Source: an uncultured Dehalococcoidia bacterium (GTDB taxonomy: Bacteria > Chloroflexota > Dehalococcoidia > Lucifugimonadales > UBA3495). From it: a DNA stretch of 23,074 bases. The stretch covers positions 1 to 23,074 of the forward strand of contig CATMOE010000056.1 in NCBI GenBank assembly GCA_950072105.1, written 5' to 3'. Shown one piece after another: positions 861 through 22,729 of the stretch. The translations under genes and the position numbers were made by a program. A model generated the notes under the pieces. That model was not told the DNA's origin. It saw only the letters and a program-made list of their open reading frames with translations, and made no database searches. Each line of letters opens with the position of its first letter. Position 1 is the stretch's first letter.

Positions 861-1991
861 ATGAACGGTTCGATTAGAAAACGAGGCAAAAATACCTGGG
901 AATTGACCGTAGAAGTAGGTCGAGACGCTGGAGGAAAAAGACTCCGGAAGTTCACTAACGTCAAAGGGACCAAGGCCCAGGCGGAGAAAAAACTTCGGGA
1001 GCTGCTAACATCCCTGGACAAGGGAATGCCCGTCAGTACAGACAAGATTTCATTCGGTCAGTGGCTGTCAAAATGGATGGCTGAATACATTATCCCCAAC
1101 AAACGCCAGAGAACCATTGAGCGCTATGAAGGTTTGATTAACAAGCACATAGCTCCGGAATTGGGTCACATTGGATTAATAAAGCTGACCCCAAGCGAGA
1201 TACGAACCCTAGAAACCAAGCTCATTGGCAAAGGTATGGCTCCCAAGGGTGTGGAGCTGGTGCACACCGTCATCTCAGGCGCATTAAAATTTGCTCTACA
1301 GGAGGAAGTGGTCTGGAGGAACTCTGCCAAGTCCGTCACACCGCCCCAGGTGATACGGAAAGAGGTGGAGCCACCGGAAATCGCCAAAGTGAAGGACATA
1401 CTGCGCTTAGCCGAGGAGGAGCACCACCCTTTGTACCCTTGCCTTTACCTCATGGCTTACACCGGTTTAAGACGAGGGGAAGCACTTGGACTCAGGTTTC
1501 AGGATTTGAATCTGGAGACGGGAATAATATCGGTAGTCCAGACCGTTGTACGGTCTCTGCACAAAGGCGTGATAATCGAACCCACCAAGACAACATACAG
1601 CAGGCGCAACGTTGACCTAGACGATGGTACTGTCGCTGTTCTTAGGGCGCACTTAGGCAATCAACTCCTCCATCGCCTGGAACTGGATGGACTCTACGAT
1701 GATAATGGCCTTGTATTTCCCGACCCTTTGGGGAAGCCGCTAAATCCTATGACCCTCACCAGAACGTTTCAGACCTACGCAACGAGGCTCGGACTGACAT
1801 CTGCCAAGTTACACGACCTCAGACACTTTCATGCCAGCGTTATGCTTCAGCATGGGCAAACCCTACTTTTGGTGAGCAAGAGGCTAGGGCATGCCAGCAT
1901 CGCCACTACTGGGGACATTTATGGACATTTGCTCCCAGGCTGGCAGAAAGAGGCCGCCAACGCCTTCGCCAAAGCTATGAGAGAGGGCTAG
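861..1991 (+). CDS. int: Tyrosine recombinase / site-specific integrase (ICE/phage-type)
   Basis: N-terminal arm-binding-like segment GSIRKRGKNTWEL; catalytic motifs YTGLRRGEALGL, KT, HDLRH, LGH...YGH; RBS AAGGAG at 846-851. Confidence 0.95.
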   Translation: MNGSIRKRGKNTWELTVEVGRDAGGKRLRKFTNVKGTKAQAEKKLRELLTSLDKGMPVSTDKISFGQWLSKWMAEYIIPNKRQRTIERYEGLINKHIAPELGHIGLIKLTPSEIRTLETKLIGKGMAPKGVELVHTVISGALKFALQEEVVWRNSAKSVTPPQVIRKEVEPPEIAKVKDILRLAEEEHHPLYPCLYLMAYTGLRRGEALGLRFQDLNLETGIISVVQTVVRSLHKGVIIEPTKTTYSRRNVDLDDGTVAVLRAHLGNQLLHRLELDGLYDDNGLVFPDPLGKPLNPMTLTRTFQTYATRLGLTSAKLHDLRHFHASVMLQHGQTLLLVSKRLGHASIATTGDIYGHLLPGWQKEAANAFAKAMREG

Positions 1992-8791: not shown

Positions 8792-9973
8792 TTACTGGTA
8801 TTTCAGCCGGGGGCCGACGGTGGCCATATATCCTTCGTAATTACGGCGGGTTTCCGGGATAGAGTCGCCGCCAAATTTTTCCATGAAGGCGCCGGCCAAA
8901 ACCAGAGCGACCATGGACTCGCCAATGACGCCGGCAGGGGGCACCTGGCAGACATCGGAGCGCTCGTAATGGGCTTGGACGAGGTCACCGGTGTCCAGGT
9001 CCACGGAAGGCAATGGGTTTGTTATGGTGGCGATGGGTTTGATAGCGAAGCGGGCGACCAAGGGCATACCGTCGGTCATCCCACCCTCGGTGCCTCCGGC
9101 CCGGTTGGTCTCCCTTTGCCACGGATTGTCGGGGTCGGTCACCGGCAGAATCACGTCATGGACCTGAGAGCCACGCAAGTCGGCGACTTCGAAGCCCGGG
9201 CCGATGGACACGGCTTTCACGGCGTTGATGGACATCAATGCCTGAGCTACAAGGGCGTCGATCTTCCGGTCCCAGTGGACGTGGGAACCCAATCCGATGG
9301 GCACATTTTCCGCGATGATCTCCACGGTCCCACCGACGGTGTCTCCAGCTTCCTTGGCAGCGTCGATCTCGGCCATCATCCTCGTGGCCGCCTCCGGATC
9401 GGCGCAGCGCACTGGGGACTCTTCAACCGCCTGCCAGTCGATAACATCCGGTATCTCGGCCTTGATGCCGCCGATGGAGATTACGTGGCTATGCAGCCGG
9501 ATGCCAAACTCTTCCAGCAAGCGCATCGCCACGGCGCCGGCGGCGACGCGGGCTGCAGTCTCCCGGGCGCTGGCCCGCTCTAAAACGTCGCGGACGTCCT
9601 GGAACCCATACTTCATCGCTCCCGGCAGATCGGCGTGGCCGGGGCGTATGCGAGTGACCCGCTTTGAACGCTCGTCGTGACTGGTATCCCCCACATCTTC
9701 CACGGCCATAGCAGTTTCCCAGTTGACCCAGTCCTTGTTCTCTATCGTCATGCCGATGGGACTGCCCAGCGTGCGACCGTGGCGAACGCCGGACATTATG
9801 TGGGCATGATCCTGTTCGATGAGCATCCGGCCCCCGCGGCCGTAACCCCGCTGACGCCGGGCCAACTGAGACGCGATGTACTCCTCGCCAATGGGCAAGG
9901 CTGCCGGGACGCCCTCGACGATTATTACCAATCCCTGACCGTGGGACTCACCTGCAGTGAAAAACCGGACCAT
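8792..9973 (-). CDS. aroC: Chorismate synthase
   Basis: RFFTAGESHG, RRQRGYGRGGRM, RPGHAD, ERASARETAARVAAG, TNRAGGTEGGMTDG, ERSD. Confidence 0.98.
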   Translation of the reverse strand: MVRFFTAGESHGQGLVIIVEGVPAALPIGEEYIASQLARRQRGYGRGGRMLIEQDHAHIMSGVRHGRTLGSPIGMTIENKDWVNWETAMAVEDVGDTSHDERSKRVTRIRPGHADLPGAMKYGFQDVRDVLERASARETAARVAAGAVAMRLLEEFGIRLHSHVISIGGIKAEIPDVIDWQAVEESPVRCADPEAATRMMAEIDAAKEAGDTVGGTVEIIAENVPIGLGSHVHWDRKIDALVAQALMSINAVKAVSIGPGFEVADLRGSQVHDVILPVTDPDNPWQRETNRAGGTEGGMTDGMPLVARFAIKPIATITNPLPSVDLDTGDLVQAHYERSDVCQVPPAGVIGESMVALVLAGAFMEKFGGDSIPETRRNYEGYMATVGPRLKYQ

Positions 9974-10065
9974 CTACGGCCCTCCCTGATACACATCACT
10001 AATTTGGCCGGAAAATACATCTGGGGAACCCTCTAGGCTCCCCAGACCATTGAAACCGTAAGAGA

Positions 10066-10917
10066 TTACCGGGCCGCCATTGCCTTGGTGGCTGCTTCCA
10101 GCATCACCGCTACCGGCGCGTCTTGGCCGGTCCACATCTCGAAAGAGGCGGCGCCCTGGTATATCAGCATATGTATGCCGCCCAGACATGCGGCTCCCGC
10201 CTCGGCAGCCGCTTTCAATAGCGGCGTCACCAAAGGATTATACACCAGGTCGTTTACCAGCACGTTGGATGGGATGCTTGCCGCGGGAAGGGGCGAGCCT
10301 GCCTCATCGGGGCCGTGGGACATTCCGATGGTGGTGCAGTTTACGATCAAGTCCGCCGCACCGGCCGCCTCCGTCAGATCCTTCACGTCTAAGGGAATGG
10401 CGAGGCCTTCAGTGTCCGCCGACTGCGCCAACTCAGCAAGGCGCTGACCTCTTTCCAAGGTACGATTGGCGATGGTAATGGTGGCAACCTTTGCCCGTGA
10501 CAGCGCCAACACCACGCCACGAGCCGCGCCTCCGGCTCCCAGAACCAACACGCGGCTTCCTTCCGGTACGAAGCCTCCCTCGTCCCGCAATGCCCTCAAG
10601 AAACCCAAGCCGTCGGTGTTATGGCCGGTAAGGCGTCCTTCCCGGTTGACGATGGTGTTTACGGCACCGGCGGCAGTCGCCCAATCGTCGACCTCATCAA
10701 TATAAGGAATCACCGCCTCTTTGTGAGGGACAGTGACGTTGATACCCCATGCGCCGTCCCGGCGCAGATCGCCGACGAATCGGCCCACTTGCTCCGGCGC
10801 AACCTCGAAAGCTTGGTAAGTCGCATCGATGCCGCAGTGGTCCAGGGCGGCTTGTTGGAAGATGGGTGAGATGGAGTGGGCTATGGGGTAGCCTATGATA
10901 CCCAAGCTGGCAGGCAA
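10066..10917 (-). CDS. aroE: Shikimate dehydrogenase
   Basis: GYPIAHSISP, GINVTVPHKE, GAVNT, GHNTDG, GAGGAARG, DLVYNP..TPLL, MLIYQGA.SFEMWTG; TTG start. Confidence 0.97.
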   Translation of the reverse strand: MPASLGIIGYPIAHSISPIFQQAALDHCGIDATYQAFEVAPEQVGRFVGDLRRDGAWGINVTVPHKEAVIPYIDEVDDWATAAGAVNTIVNREGRLTGHNTDGLGFLRALRDEGGFVPEGSRVLVLGAGGAARGVVLALSRAKVATITIANRTLERGQRLAELAQSADTEGLAIPLDVKDLTEAAGAADLIVNCTTIGMSHGPDEAGSPLPAASIPSNVLVNDLVYNPLVTPLLKAAAEAGAACLGGIHMLIYQGAASFEMWTGQDAPVAVMLEAATKAMAAR

Positions 10918-11104
10918 AACGGTCTTTCCTACGCCTAGTGGTTTGGGGTCTAGCGATGTGTAGGCGCCTCATTCGAGTATACAAGCAGCCTCATACCTCA
11001 GCAAGGCGGCTAGGAAGCCGCTACCATGGATGGGCGGATGGGCGCTTAGGCATAAACCGCTAGGGAGCGCACCAGACAGATGAGGCATGGATTCGAGCCA
11101 AGGC

Positions 11105-11135
11105 TTGACATTCTAGGGACTGGAAGGAATAAGCT
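11105..11135 (+). promoter_or_regulatory. MerR-type promoter/operator with 19-bp spacer
   Basis: TTGACA (11105-11110)-N19-TAAGCT (11130-11135), with imperfect dyad ACATTCT-N7-GGAAGGA (11108-11128) resembling the CueR box ACCTTCC-N7-GGAAGGT. Confidence 0.8.
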
Positions 11136-11152
11136 GATCTGGGAGGTCAGCC

Positions 11153-11602
11153 ATGCGAAGTACGCTTACCATCGGCCAGGTGGCCAAAGCAACCGGGATA
11201 AACGCCAAGACAATACGCTACTACGAGGAAGCCGGGGTGGCCCCGCCACCGCAACGGAGCCAATCTGGGTACCGGATGTACTCCGAGACGGATGTGCGGC
11301 GATTCGATCTCATCAGGCGGGCTAGGTCCTTGGATATGACGCTGTCAGACGTGAAGCAACTGGCAGAGTTGGCAGGTAGCGGAGGGTGCGACGCATTTCA
11401 GCAACAATTCCAAGAAGTAGTACGCCGTAAGCAGGAAGACGTGGACCGGCGTATCGCCGACTTGTTGGCTTTGAAGCAAGACCTGCAACAGGTGGAATCT
11501 CACCTCACCACGATGTCTGAAGGCGAAGCCGCGGCTTGCGATACGGTGCTGGAGTGTCCGCCGGAAGCGTGCGATTGCCTGGGAACCAAGGTTAGAGTTT
11601 AG
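11153..11602 (+). CDS. Heavy-metal-responsive MerR-family transcriptional regulator
   Basis: TIGQVAKATGINAKTIRYYEEAG...RSQSGYRMYS HTH; Cys79 at the start of the dimerisation helix; C-terminal C129, C135, C140, C142; GGAGG RBS. Confidence 0.93.
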   Translation: MRSTLTIGQVAKATGINAKTIRYYEEAGVAPPPQRSQSGYRMYSETDVRRFDLIRRARSLDMTLSDVKQLAELAGSGGCDAFQQQFQEVVRRKQEDVDRRIADLLALKQDLQQVESHLTTMSEGEAAACDTVLECPPEACDCLGTKVRV

Positions 11603-11629
11603 AGCTCAAAAAATATAGGAGGCTCCAAA

Positions 11630-11872
11630 ATGCCAGAAACAACAAACGTGGAAAGCGCGACTGAAGAGAATCTAAATCAGGATTGTGGTTGCGGCTGCGG
11701 CTGTAGCTCCGTTGCCGCCGGGAATAACGACTGTGGCTGTGGTTGCAGCGGAGACTCGTGTGGCTCAGATTGGCAAGAGTTGAATTTTGTGGGAGAAGCC
11801 CAGGTCACCGCCGCGCGCCAACAAGGTGCTGGGCAAGATTGCGGCTGCGGCTGTTGCTCATCGGCGGAATGA
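11630..11872 (+). CDS. Small Cys-rich protein, candidate metallothionein / metal-sequestering protein
   Basis: Strong RBS AGGAGG (11617-11622); 80 aa with 12 Cys in three clusters DCGCGCGC, DCGCGCSGDSC, DCGCGCC; 27 nt downstream of merR. Confidence 0.75.
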   Translation: MPETTNVESATEENLNQDCGCGCGCSSVAAGNNDCGCGCSGDSCGSDWQELNFVGEAQVTAARQQGAGQDCGCGCCSSAE

Positions 11873-11933
11873 TCCGCAGCCTATTTCATCGCATTGGCGA
11901 GGTTCCGGAGCAGCTTGGAGAGACGAGGTAAAA

Positions 11934-14630
11934 CTACCCCTCCAACTGCTCCAGAATCTCTTTCAGACGCTGCTGGCGTTCCTCCAAGGACTTGAACCTT
12001 TCTTCCGTTGTTTCCACAACTTCCGGTTTGGCTTTGGCGCGGAAATTCGGGTTGGCCACCAGCTTTCCGACCCTGGTTAAGTTGCTCTCACAGTCGGCCA
12101 GCTCGCCCCGCAGGCGTTCAGCCTCAGCCAAAATGTCCACCACCCCTTCCAATGGCAGCCGCACCACCAAGGGATCCACCACCAAGGTGATTCCCCGGGG
12201 CTGGTTGGCGGTTTCCCCGTCACCGGACACGACCTTCAGCGGGTCGATCCGGGAAAGGTTCCGGATAAGATCCGCCTCTTCTTCTATGGTGCTCTGGAGG
12301 CCGTTGGCATCCACTATCGCTTCCAAGAACTGGTTGGCGGGTATCTGCAACTGGGCACGGGTATTACGCACGGCGCGGATGGTCTGCATCACCAGAGAAA
12401 TCTCTCTCTCCGCATTTTCGTCTTGGAGTCCGGAATCGGCTAGAGGATATGGAGAAACCATGATGGACTCGGGCAGGCCGCCTTCGCTGGGGAGCCGTTC
12501 CATCAGGTTCTGCCAGATCTCCTCGGTAATAAAGGGCATAAAGGGATGCAGCAGGCGCAATGTGCGCTCAAGTACGTGGGTTAGTATGGGCAAAGGTGAC
12601 GGGGTCGCGCCGGACCGCAGGCGAATCTTCGCCATTTCGATGTACCAGTCGCAGTAGTCGTTCCAGATGAAGTCGTACAACTTCTGCTGGGCTTCACCAA
12701 GCTCGAAGGCTTCCAGCGACCTATTGACGTCTTCGATGGTCCGGTTCAGGCGGCTGATGATCCATCTGTCTTCCCGGTGTTCCGGAGCGGGCAGATCAAA
12801 CCAGCCATCAAGGCCGTCTTTGCCCTGGATGCTGGTGAGCACAAACCGTGAGGCGTTCCAAACCTTGTTGGCAAAGTTTCGCGCCGCTTCCAGCCTAGAC
12901 TCGGCAAAACGCAGGTCGTTACCCGGCGCGGTGCCGGTAGTCAGAGCAAACCGAAGCGCGTCGGTGCCGTATTTATCAATCAACTCCAGGGGGTCCATGG
13001 TGTTACCCCGGGTTTTGCTCATCTTGGCGCCAGAGGCGTCCCGGATGAGGCCATGAAGAAAAACGGTCTTGAAGGGCACTTGCCCGGTATTCTCGATGCC
13101 CATCATTATCATGCGGGCGACCCAGAAGAAGAGGATGTCGTAGCCGGTCTCAAGAACGGTAGTGGGGTAGAAGTAATCCAAGTCCTCGGTTTCTTCCGGC
13201 CAGCCAAGGGTTGAATGGGGCCAGAGTCCAGAGCTGAACCAAGTGTCCAGAACATCGGGGTCCTGTTCAAGTTTGGAGGAGCCGCAGGCAACACAGCTCG
13301 AGGGGTCCTCCATCAACGACATCATTTCCCCGCACTCTTGGCAGTACCACACCGGGATGCGGTGTCCCCACCAAAGCTGGCGGCTGATGCACCAGTCGCG
13401 GATGTTTTCCAGCCAGTTGAGATATACCCGGGTGAAACGCTCCGGCACCAGAGCAATATCCCCCTGGGCCACGGCAGCGTGGGCCCGGCCGGCGATGCTG
13501 TCCGGATCCTTATGGCTGCCAACGTTGACGAACCATTGAAGACTGATCAGCGGCTCCACCACCGTGTCGCACCGCTGGCAATGGCCCACGGAGTGCCGGT
13601 AATCTTCCACCTTTTCCAGCAGCCCCAGGGTCTCCAACTCAGCTACCACTTCCTTCCGAACCTCGAACCGCTCTTTTCCAGCGTATTTGCCAGCGGCATC
13701 CGTCATGTTACCGTCCAGTCCGATAACGGTCACAATCTCCAGACCGTGGCGCTGGCCTATCTCCAAGTCCACCGGGTCGTGGCCCGGGGTTACTTTCAGG
13801 GCGCCGGTTCCGAAATCCAGGGCAATGGCCTCGTCGCCGACTATGGGAATGGCTCGGCCCATGATGGGCAATACGACCTGCTTCCCTAGGAAGTCACGGT
13901 AGCGAGGGTCGTCGGGATGGACCGCCACACCAGTATCACCCAACATGGTTTCCGGACGGGTGGTGGCCACGGTGATGTGGGAGGTGGGATCGTCCGCCAA
14001 GGGATAGTGGATATGGTACAGAGCGCCATCTTGCTCTTCGTGATTGACTTCCAGGTCCGAAAGAGCGGTGGCGCACCGGATGCACCAGTTAATCATTCGC
14101 TCGTGGCGGTATATCAGGCCTTTGTTATACAGATTCACGAAGGTGGTGCGGACCGCCTTGACCGGGCCCGGATCCAACGTGAACTTATGTCGCGAAGAGT
14201 CGGCGGAAATACCGAGACGACGCGATTGCTCGTGGATAATACCTCCGTATTTCTCCACATGCTCCCAGACCAACTTCAGGAACTTCTCCCGGCCTAATTC
14301 GTGACGGTCACGGCCTTCCGCAGCCAGTTGACGCTCGACAGCCCACTGGGTGGCTATGCCGGCGTGGTCGGTCCCCGGCAGCCAAAGGGTCGGAACGCCC
14401 GACATCCGCCGCCACCGCACCAAAGCGTCCTCTAAGGCCTTTTCCAGAGCGTGCCCCAGGTGCAGTTCACCGGTCACGTTGGGCGGCGGCATGATTATCG
14501 TGTAAGGCGTTGCATTGGGGTCCCGGACGGCCTTGAAATAGTCCTTGGCCATCCAGGTTTCATAGATACGGCGCTCCACGTCGGCCGCGTTGTAGACGCT
14601 GGGTATATCAGCGGAAGGCTTGGCGGTCAT
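11934..14630 (-). CDS. valS: Valine--tRNA ligase
   Basis: PPPNVTGELHLGH (HIGH), PGTDHAGIATQ, ATTRPET, DWCISRQLWWGHRIP, KMSKT (KMSKS), C-terminal coiled coil. Confidence 0.98.
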   Translation of the reverse strand: MTAKPSADIPSVYNAADVERRIYETWMAKDYFKAVRDPNATPYTIIMPPPNVTGELHLGHALEKALEDALVRWRRMSGVPTLWLPGTDHAGIATQWAVERQLAAEGRDRHELGREKFLKLVWEHVEKYGGIIHEQSRRLGISADSSRHKFTLDPGPVKAVRTTFVNLYNKGLIYRHERMINWCIRCATALSDLEVNHEEQDGALYHIHYPLADDPTSHITVATTRPETMLGDTGVAVHPDDPRYRDFLGKQVVLPIMGRAIPIVGDEAIALDFGTGALKVTPGHDPVDLEIGQRHGLEIVTVIGLDGNMTDAAGKYAGKERFEVRKEVVAELETLGLLEKVEDYRHSVGHCQRCDTVVEPLISLQWFVNVGSHKDPDSIAGRAHAAVAQGDIALVPERFTRVYLNWLENIRDWCISRQLWWGHRIPVWYCQECGEMMSLMEDPSSCVACGSSKLEQDPDVLDTWFSSGLWPHSTLGWPEETEDLDYFYPTTVLETGYDILFFWVARMIMMGIENTGQVPFKTVFLHGLIRDASGAKMSKTRGNTMDPLELIDKYGTDALRFALTTGTAPGNDLRFAESRLEAARNFANKVWNASRFVLTSIQGKDGLDGWFDLPAPEHREDRWIISRLNRTIEDVNRSLEAFELGEAQQKLYDFIWNDYCDWYIEMAKIRLRSGATPSPLPILTHVLERTLRLLHPFMPFITEEIWQNLMERLPSEGGLPESIMVSPYPLADSGLQDENAEREISLVMQTIRAVRNTRAQLQIPANQFLEAIVDANGLQSTIEEEADLIRNLSRIDPLKVVSGDGETANQPRGITLVVDPLVVRLPLEGVVDILAEAERLRGELADCESNLTRVGKLVANPNFRAKAKPEVVETTEERFKSLEERQQRLKEILEQLEG

Positions 14631-21767: not shown

Positions 21768-22499
21768 TTAAGACCGGCGACCCATCACGAAGGCGCCGCC
21801 CGCTCCTATCGCAGCCACGATGGCTATGATGAGAGCAATAACAGCCAGAGAACCGCCACCACCGGCAGCACCGACAGCCCCAGCAGGACCGGCGGGGCCA
21901 GCCGCTCCGTCCGAGCCAGCGGAACCGGCGGGGCCAGCCGCTCCAGCCGAACCAGAGGAACCGGCGGGGCCAGCGGCACCGGCGGAACCGGCAGGGCCTT
22001 TGGCGCCCGCAGCACCTGCGGCGCCTGCTTTACCGGAAGCTCCGCCAGGTCCGGCGGGTCCAGGTCCGCCTCCGGGTCCGGGGGCACCGGCCTTACCAGC
22101 TGGCCCAGCTGGCCCAGCCGGGCCAGCGACAGGCGAAGGGGCCAGGACGGGGGCCGCCGTCAGATTAATTACATCGCCACCATCAGGCTCCCAGGTCCCT
22201 CTTTCCGGAGCTTCGGACTCGGCGACCATGAACACGACTTCTTTGCCGGCAAAAGCCCCGCCCGGGGGTTGGGAGATCATCAAGGCATAGGCGCCGTCGG
22301 CCGCAGTGGTCAACGCAACTTGTTCACCGTCGATCCAAGCGGACACGGCAGTCCCATCGGGAGCGGGGGCGCCGTCCCAGGTGACAGTCCCACCGAATAC
22401 CGAAGGCAACGGTGGTTGCGCTTGAGCCAAGACCACAGCCGGGATGGCCAGTAGCAATGCTATTACAGCCAGTGAGGCCAGGATGCTAAATTTCGTCAC
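21768..22499 (-). CDS. Exported, membrane-anchored collagen-like protein (243 aa)
   Basis: GTG 22499 after AAGGAGG; signal peptide ending AVVLA-QAQ; ~90-aa globular domain; 29 uninterrupted Gly-X-Y triplets; GGGGS, TM helix, MGRRS. Confidence 0.88.
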   Translation of the reverse strand: MTKFSILASLAVIALLLAIPAVVLAQAQPPLPSVFGGTVTWDGAPAPDGTAVSAWIDGEQVALTTAADGAYALMISQPPGGAFAGKEVVFMVAESEAPERGTWEPDGGDVINLTAAPVLAPSPVAGPAGPAGPAGKAGAPGPGGGPGPAGPGGASGKAGAAGAAGAKGPAGSAGAAGPAGSSGSAGAAGPAGSAGSDGAAGPAGPAGAVGAAGGGGSLAVIALIIAIVAAIGAGGAFVMGRRS

Positions 22500-22729
22500 G
22501 GGTTCCTCCTTATATGTTAATGCGGGAGTGCAGATTGATCCCACAGCTTGGTCAATTAACGTAACGTATGTTACTTACGACGATCTATGATGCCCTATTA
22601 CGGTAGAATTTGCAACGCTTCGGGGATGTCGGATGTAACGAGTTTTTGTCCGTTCGGCGCTCCGAGAACCCGATGATGCTTCATTTGGCTGCGGGATAAA
22701 GCCTCCTGAGCAAGATTTAGCTTATAGAA

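Follow-up and report, generated by a model that had tools for sequence, protein, structure and literature searches.

What might a MerR-family regulator be doing beside a gene for an acidic protein of only 80 residues, 12 of which are cysteine? The question is raised by a two-gene cassette in DNA from an uncultured Dehalococcoidia bacterium; ‘the window’ is used here for the whole stretch of 23,074 nucleotides that was analysed. An earlier note on this DNA had suggested a metal-inducible metallothionein system. Judged from sequence analysis, the reading that we prefer, at a probability of roughly 0.65, is that the MerR–peptide unit acts as a self-activating, metal-induced thiolate sink of a metallothionein-like kind. 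Metallothioneins are small, Cys-rich proteins with Cys-x-Cys and Cys-Cys motifs (PMC12193353), and as of 2020 two bacterial examples, SmtA and MymT, were counted as having a studied biological function (PMC7387436). If true, the preferred reading would add a His-free, repeat-built metallothionein family and a MerR subfamily with a metal site unlike all named models, carried by uncultured Chloroflexota in which metal handling is little known.

Layout of the cassette

The features of the cassette and its flanks are as follows.

10066-10917, minus strand: aroE, flank of the cassette
11105..11135, plus strand: MerR-type promoter (-35 TTGACA at 11105-11110, 19-bp spacer, -10 TAAGCT at 11130-11135)
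11111..11125, no strand: operator dyad TTCTAG-GGA-CTGGAA within the 19-bp spacer (family consensus TTCCAG-N3-CTGGAA)
11142..11147, plus strand: merR Shine-Dalgarno GGAGGT, read from the sequence
11153..11602, plus strand: merR, MerR-family regulator of 149 aa (Pfam MerR_1, 2.4e-20; invariant C79, H117, C135, C140 and C142)
11617..11622, plus strand: peptide-gene Shine-Dalgarno AGGAGG, 7 nt upstream of the ATG
11630..11872, plus strand: Cys/Gly-rich small protein of 80 aa with 12 Cys (DCGCGC repeats; purifying selection; relatives known; without a family match)
11898..11960, no strand: strong hairpin (folding energy against shuffles) between the convergent peptide gene and valS, overlapping the valS stop
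11934-14630, minus strand: valS, flank of the cassette

The whole MerR–peptide unit takes up less than 800 bp, and merR and the peptide gene have GC contents of 57.6% and 56.8%, against 57.6% for the genome. What had been reported earlier of the small protein, namely its coordinates, its 80 residues, the positions of its 12 Cys, three DCGCGC repeats and an acidic composition without His or Lys, is borne out by the sequence, as are the strong ribosome-binding site, the 27-nt gap between merR and the peptide ORF and the aroE and valS flanks. It also holds at this locus that the cassette contains no pump, reductase or peptide-modifying enzyme. The window's dyad is one mismatch from the consensus, and the cassette promoter was missed by a standard scan for 16-18 bp promoters, which a spacer of 19 bp would lead one to expect. 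Placed by the position of the -10 element, the start of transcription would lie close to the merR Shine-Dalgarno sequence. At the other end, positions 11873-11970 fold with -37.1 kcal/mol (z -3.7; 0 of 200 shuffles equally stable), and the hairpin at 11898-11960 is likely to end the cassette transcript; its U-tract is weak and it is absent from the list of the terminator scan. The left arm of this hairpin approximates an inverted copy of the final valS codons and is kept in L011 and L029. Towards the ends of the window, and unlinked to the cassette, lie a tyrosine integrase gene on the left (861-1991, plus strand) and a collagen-repeat ORF on the right (21768-22544, minus strand).

A family of Cys/Gly-rich peptides

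By its pattern of substitution the 80-codon ORF is a real gene under purifying selection: pN/pS is below 1 in 8 of 8 pairs (range 0.16-0.56), being lowest with two close relatives (0.16-0.17) and reaching 0.30-0.56 in the six pairs of greater distance. Substitutions are largely synonymous, codons are mixed in the conserved Cys and Gly columns, and indels among close relatives preserve the frame. When the whole genome was scanned for ORFs of 25-110 aa that had a ribosome-binding site, a CxCxC-type motif and no fewer than 6 Cys making up at least 10% of residues, six matched, and among them the window peptide alone has CG repeats. Selenocysteine read-through of its TGA was considered and rejected, relatives stopping at TAA or TAG. 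The peptide is built from a 17-residue lead-in, the DCGCGC repeats, a QELNFV motif (residues 49-54) and a C-terminal CGCGCC; its cysteines (19/21/23/25, 35/37/39/44 and 71/73/75/76) amount to 15% of residues and form CxCxC and CC motifs, and 12 Asp/Glu stand against a single Arg.

A profile search of 1.84 billion representatives (50% clustering) returned 34 proteins at E <= 0.001. The family alignment consists of 42 full-length members, fragments, fusions and near-duplicates (P0001, P0007-P0009, P0013, P0022, P0033, P0038) having been left out, and six weak single-sequence matches (E 0.01-0.1, five of them containing stops) were set aside as chance. The 42 members are 55-86 aa long with 4-13 Cys (median 9) and a Cys content of 6-17% (median 12.6%), some having just 4 Cys; Cys and Gly together make up 29% of their residues, Phe, Trp and Tyr 1.8% and His 0.6%. 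The top conserved columns are Cys and Gly. DCGCGC is found in 39 of the 42, a QEL-x-x-V type motif in 35, and a start exactly 17 residues ahead of DCGCG likewise in 35. The description of three evenly loaded four-Cys clusters holds for the window sequence and its lineage but not for the family, which is modular: many members lack the second repeat or the C-terminal cluster, and all three clusters occur in only about a quarter of members (10 of 42 by a scripted rule that undercounts by about 2). Few aromatic residues are a criterion for metallothioneins, and the family shows this trait together with Cys richness and Cys-x-Cys and Cys-Cys motifs. None of the 42 members has a relevant Pfam or NCBIfam match at E <= 1, and a PDB sequence search with the peptide returned midkine at E 1 alone; the nearest ESM Atlas cluster is named ‘Metallothionein family protein’ (score 0.84), which is a lead only.

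The fixed length of the lead-in could also be that of a leader, and the peptide would then be a RiPP precursor, with 17 residues of leader, a Cys-rich core and enzymes encoded elsewhere. Two radical-SAM peptide models each give a weak score with one of the 42 members (E 0.013 and 0.2), and a cyanobactin PatA/PatG-type protease (P0067) has two similar DCGCGCGG stretches in its linker (E 5e-3), probably by convergence. Linkage to radical SAM or YcaO enzymes, which the earlier note had named as the mark of such a precursor, was not found: no modifying enzyme is among the neighbouring ORFs that were scanned (39 chosen from 144 listed, and 3 more), and in genomes that are 78-92% complete the searches gave a SPASM radical SAM in 0 of 1, YcaO in 0 of 5 and PqqD as one weak, unlinked match in 5. 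In-frame fusion to a transcription factor, as described below, would moreover be unexpected of a precursor, and this explanation is considered very improbable.

Linkage, promoter conservation and distribution

The linkage survey was queried with the regulator, and hence the peptide was unselected. Close members of the MerR subfamily turned up in 7 of 150 genomes of the taxonomic family, in 4 of another 400 from the order and in 1 of 400 from the class; the carrier genomes are kin and incomplete, so that these counts are non-independent and absence is unproven. A DCGCG(C) peptide lies behind the subfamily merR in each of the 11 Dehalococcoidia genomes whose contigs continue past that gene (G000, G001, G114, G116, G132, G156, G191, G202, G285, G474 and G704), the metagenome contig L032 also has merR and then the peptide, and in a 12th genome (G010) the subfamily merR is cut by the contig end. 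The homologue search that had been proposed earlier thus found both the Cys/Gly motifs (conserved across the 42 sequences) and the link to merR (11 of 11 genomes) retained. The peptide profile itself matches 6 of 150 taxonomic-family genomes, once each and each time behind a subfamily merR, and in 401 genomes from across the phylum, few of them Dehalococcoidia, it matched nothing beyond G000.

The hallmark of a MerR promoter, a dyad within a -35/-10 spacer of 19-20 bp, is present at every subfamily locus scanned: TTGACA-TTCCAG-N3-(C)TGGAA-N4-(-10), with a 19-bp spacer, was found in 12 of 12, so the shared MerR-style promoter claimed for the window is confirmed there and kept elsewhere. The promoter of L051 is a one-base variant. 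The exact dyad pattern occurs in 6 of 150 taxonomic-family genomes, once each and always before a subfamily merR, and its reversed control gave 0 matches in the same 150. When G000 was scanned from ten seed pentamers with a matrix built from the 12 loci, the window's own site included, the cassette site scored best at 42.5 bits and the next 15.5. A wider regulon in G000 was rejected on this difference; the other 30 one-mismatch dyads of that genome are without an adjacent TTGACA and were not accepted as regulon sites. The regulon looks to be the MerR–peptide operon alone.

By gene order the cassette is accessory, because it is patchy within the genus, its site is empty in G010 and its neighbours in other carriers are unrelated. 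G002, which belongs to the same genus as the window's genome, did not yield it in the searches (these genomes being incomplete), and the other carriers hold it among unrelated genes. The valS–aroE junction is empty in G010, has a different small gene in G002 and in G114 appears to hold the cassette too, split over two contigs; this site takes accessory insertions. The carriers are presumably of the marine SAR202 lineage. Marine metagenome and metatranscriptome runs contain sequences close to the cassette, and four metatranscriptome runs (X1-X4, of 23 listed) cover 28-30 of 30 bins over positions 9500-13500; in the RNA-library contigs aroE, valS and intergenic DNA are covered like the cassette, so this coverage indicates presence only.

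At four of 11 carriers (L012, L014, L041 and L042) a second MerR, of a P-C-V-H-V type, lies divergently beside the cassette and has a promoter of its own. Regulators of MerA-like genes belong to the wider group of this second MerR, a grouping that is weakly supported (92/72). The membrane protein behind this divergent MerR, which we take to be DsbD/CcdA-like (no Pfam match at 1e-6), breaks at GVG-TGA-VGP in L012:2424-2999, L092:5053-5928 and L034:3030-3905, where the relative in L022 seems to continue through the site with a Cys; judged from these sequences, the site is likely to be a selenocysteine in a DsbD/CcdA-like protein.

The MerR regulator

The regulator matches Pfam MerR_1, MerR and MerR-DNA-bind, placing it in the winged-HTH MerR family. 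It had been called a metal-type MerR, and this is right in so far as the metal models of NCBIfam score highest (CueR, MerR, CadR/PbrR and ZntR at 78-89 bits, NmlR at 54 and SoxR at 49), but the metal site is non-canonical, with C79 four residues early, and the protein falls short of the cut-offs of all named NCBIfam MerR models (CueR: 89 bits against a cut-off of 147). C79, H117, C135, C140 and C142 are invariant across 19 regulator sequences, and the C-x4-C-x-C motif lies about 18 residues past the helix-end His. An alignment with CadR, 4ua1, ZntR and CueR (the last two from E. coli) places Q83 in the canonical helix-5 Cys/Ser column and C79 four residues ahead of the ZntR/CadR/MerR Cys; the aligned regulator has no Ser at the position of CueR Ser77 and, compared with the divalent sensors, no Cys at the start of the canonical metal-binding loop. 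The structural model (mean pLDDT 82) has a helix of 46 residues (79-124) starting at C79, and residues 121-149 are poorly modelled (pLDDT 44-54). The closest solved structures are 4ua1 (titled ‘Regulatory protein’, which we take to be Hg-MerR), CadR and CueR, and identity to any plasmid MerR listed is at most about 40%.

In a tree, the regulators linked to the peptide make up a clade of their own (14 rows, support 99/94) within a broader clade of Dehalococcoidia sequences that have the early Cys (34 rows, 96/93); the rows for E. coli and Lentzea have long branches, and the root serves for drawing only. Divalent sensors of the MerR family have a Cys in helix 5 and monovalent sensors a Ser (PMC11672702); going by its sequence, the regulator fits neither rule exactly and leans towards the divalent side. 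The metal is not readable from the regulator, because its metal site is non-canonical.

Such a site leaves room for another kind of signal. The unit might answer thiol, redox or electrophile stress, as NmlR/AdhR and SoxR do, with the peptide serving as a sacrificial thiol pool or an Fe-S carrier. MerR proteins are described as sensing oxidative, carbonyl and nitrosative stress too (PMC11672702, section 3.2.3), and redoxin-like and DsbD/CcdA-like genes occur in the neighbourhood of related regulators. Against this stand the lead of the metal models over NmlR and SoxR given above and the fact that 4ua1, CadR and CueR are the closest solved structures, and a variable number of CG repeats is ill-suited to an Fe-S site; the stress explanation is held to be quite improbable.

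Fusions of regulator and peptide

Twelve longer proteins among 8000 candidates scored match the peptide profile; ten are in-frame MerR–peptide fusions and the remaining two are weak and unrelated. All ten fusions retain a Met 17 (nine) or 19 (one) residues ahead of DCGCGC, against a background Met frequency of 1.1% in this comparison (in P0065 the Met at 17 was read straight from the sequence). In most of them Gly-Gly or Glu-Val comes right before the retained Met, residues that GGAGG or GAGGT would encode. From these protein sequences it seems likely that the fused genes yield a long regulator and, via the retained internal start, the free peptide as well.

The same fusions can be explained by taking the peptide to be a detachable part of the sensor, which would dock on the MerR dimer, perhaps via the QEL-x-x-V strand, and set the threshold by delivering or stripping metal, bulk sequestration being minor. 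All ten strong longer matches are MerR fusions and no other partner was found; the non-Cys motif and the length of the lead-in are conserved, the operon is without other output, and the C-terminal tail of Pseudomonas putida CadR is reported to form a second, cooperative Cd site (PMC11672702). However, the start Met is retained in every fusion and the split forms have a strong Shine-Dalgarno sequence, so the free peptide itself seems to be selected. Fusions can also arise passively from a change of frame, because the merR tail overlaps the peptide start in another frame at several split loci, and a unit with self-tuning as its sole target would have no useful output unless other targets were missed. 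On balance a role as sensor part is thought unlikely.

Proposed mechanism and inducing metal

MerR dimers sit on the dyad and untwist the 19-bp spacer once the inducer is bound (PMC11672702, section 3.2.3). In the preferred reading of the unit as a thiolate sink, the dimer on the dyad would bind a soft metal and activate the promoter, giving more MerR and more peptide. C79, at the start of the dimer helix, would combine with C135, C140 and C142, and perhaps H117, of the other subunit into a three- or four-thiolate site, which for that reason would favour Hg(II) or Cd(II), as divalent soft metals, over Cu(I)/Ag(I) or Zn. The Cys-Gly-Cys repeats of the peptide, its sole output because the operon is without pump or reductase, are predicted to trap metal as thiolate clusters, and by lowering free metal the peptide would switch its own promoter off. 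The variable repeat number (4-13 Cys) is more in keeping with a sink than with a fixed cofactor site. Against a sink stand the modest Cys content (15% in the window peptide) and the members with 4 Cys, and the QEL-x-x-V motif and 17-residue lead-in count against a pure sink because it would need neither. A more ambitious combination, in which a new metallothionein family built from repeats, under a distinct Dehalococcoidia MerR clade whose metal site has moved by one helical turn, is the main Hg/Cd defence of cells mostly without MerA and a ZntA-type pump, a nested start lets one gene encode sensor and sponge, and the peptide docks back to reset the sensor, is as a joint claim unlikely.

Within the metallothionein reading, the inducer would be Hg(II) or Cd(II) at slightly better than even odds, Cu(I) or Ag(I) at about one in three and Zn at about one in ten. 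The lean to Hg/Cd over Cu comes about because copA has its own CsoR-type repressor, the gene lying behind a CsoR/RicR-type gene in G000 and G001. G000 has one heavy-metal P-type ATPase, of CopA type, which is absent from the operator matches, and the sole P1B ATPase found in each of six out of six carrier genomes has CPC, YN and MxxSS, which we take to be copper-type motifs. The missing Ser at the CueR Ser77 position of the regulator speaks for a metal other than copper. The extra Cys in the regulator likewise points to Hg/Cd, as do regulators of the same operator type, forming a separate MerR clade, that precede MerA-like genes in three genomes of the taxonomic family (L017-L019; the MerA-like ORFs are partial, with TIGR02053 as best match, under its cut-off). 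On the other side, the cassette promoter is identical to E. coli PcopA at 21 of 31 bases and to PzntA at 12 of 31 (an ungapped count, which the 20-bp zntA spacer lowers), and a relative of the regulator drives CopCD. Zn would be less in need of a sink because a CDF pump was found in 5 of 5 genomes tested, a finding that also weighs against Hg/Cd.

MerA exceeds its cut-off in one of six carrier genomes (one of the five besides G000). For G000 a mer operon was discarded because its top MerA candidate scores 387 bits against a cut-off of 454 and has no C-terminal CC. The idea of reading the metal from the operator was rejected as well, the operator type being common to MerA-, CopCD- and peptide-linked regulators. 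Contig C27 of G000 also has a MerB-like ORF (L077:1270-2064, minus strand; PF03243, 46 bits) with two in-frame TGA inside the match; read with TGA as U it becomes one protein, and it is likely to be a selenoprotein.

Comparison with known systems

The earlier remark that the peptide was not recognised as a described family is upheld, as neither Pfam, NCBIfam nor PDB gave a match and the SmtA and MymT profiles stayed unmatched. Specifically, no Pfam or NCBIfam model of the SmtA/BmtA/PmtA type, the family that we take PF02069 (Metallothio_Pro) to represent, matched the window peptide or the 42 members at E <= 1. By composition and context the peptide is metallothionein-like, and by every sequence test it falls outside both SmtA/BmtA/PmtA and MymT.

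SmtA/BmtA and Pseudomonas PmtA resemble it in being small and Cys-rich, and the cyanobacterial gene, too, lies beside a metal sensor (PMC7387436, PMC12193353). SmtA is paired with the divergent repressor SmtB (PMC7387436), whereas the cassette has an activator-type MerR that is co-transcribed or fused. The Pseudomonas metallothionein is described in the same source as having a Cys9His cluster and is presented there without a linked regulator (PMC7387436), in contrast to the His-free window peptide with its CG repeats.

Among the members of the peptide family no MymT match was obtained with Pfam or NCBIfam. MymT is regulated by the CsoR-family repressor RicR; in the present genomes, by contrast, the CsoR/RicR-type gene goes with copA and the peptide stands behind a MerR promoter. 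As a small metal-sequestering protein, acting in copper detoxification in Mycobacterium tuberculosis, MymT is nevertheless alike in kind (PMC7387436, PMC11672702).

Precedent for a small Cys protein induced by a MerR-family activator is provided by CadR-Zrd of Pseudomonas aeruginosa, in which a previously unannotated protein is proposed to sequester Zn/Cd (PMC12301328). Zrd differs in having two CXXC-N10-CXXC zinc ribbons with mononuclear sites and in being unlinked to cadR, and CadR is described there as lacking autoregulation (PMC12301328), whereas the cassette promoter drives merR itself and the cassette family has the CGCGC motif and fusions. Of the published systems compared, CadR-Zrd comes closest in its logic and differs in motif and layout.

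The regulator shares the MerR fold and a long -35/-10 spacer with a dyad with E. coli CueR/PcopA and with ZntR, CadR, PbrR and Hg-MerR. CueR has a helix-5 Ser and two Cys in a short loop, where the cassette MerR has Q83, C79 nearby and three Cys far downstream; ZntR, CadR, PbrR and Hg-MerR have a helix-5 Cys, whereas C79 is at the predicted start of the helix, four residues off register.

Literature searches, mostly outside subscription journals, returned no paper on the peptide family by title or abstract start and nothing on SAR202 with metallothionein, and four supplement files of PMC11705764 contain neither DCGCGC nor CGCGCG. The MerR–peptide module is conserved and appears to be undescribed, and its peptide is a good candidate for a metallothionein; the metagenome-mined sets of Li et al. 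2020 or DeepMetagenome could contain a member.

Related Dehalococcoidia loci

Around 22 more distant Dehalococcoidia MerR genes there were seven short Cys peptides, three fused Cys tails, four instances of an ERxCC protein, one CopCD and one gene that we take to be AhpD-like; two loci ran into contig ends and at four nothing was recognised. The ERxCC protein has about 100 aa and ILACE and ERxCC motifs, and it stands behind or is fused to the MerRs of L053, L061, L070 and L073; those tested had no Pfam or NCBIfam match. The MerRs of L052, L054, L055, L057, L060, L062 and L067 are followed by peptides of 30-61 aa ending in CxCxC or CC, most of which have a hydrophobic stretch such as LIPVL ahead of the motif, and these are possibly the design of the cassette in miniature.
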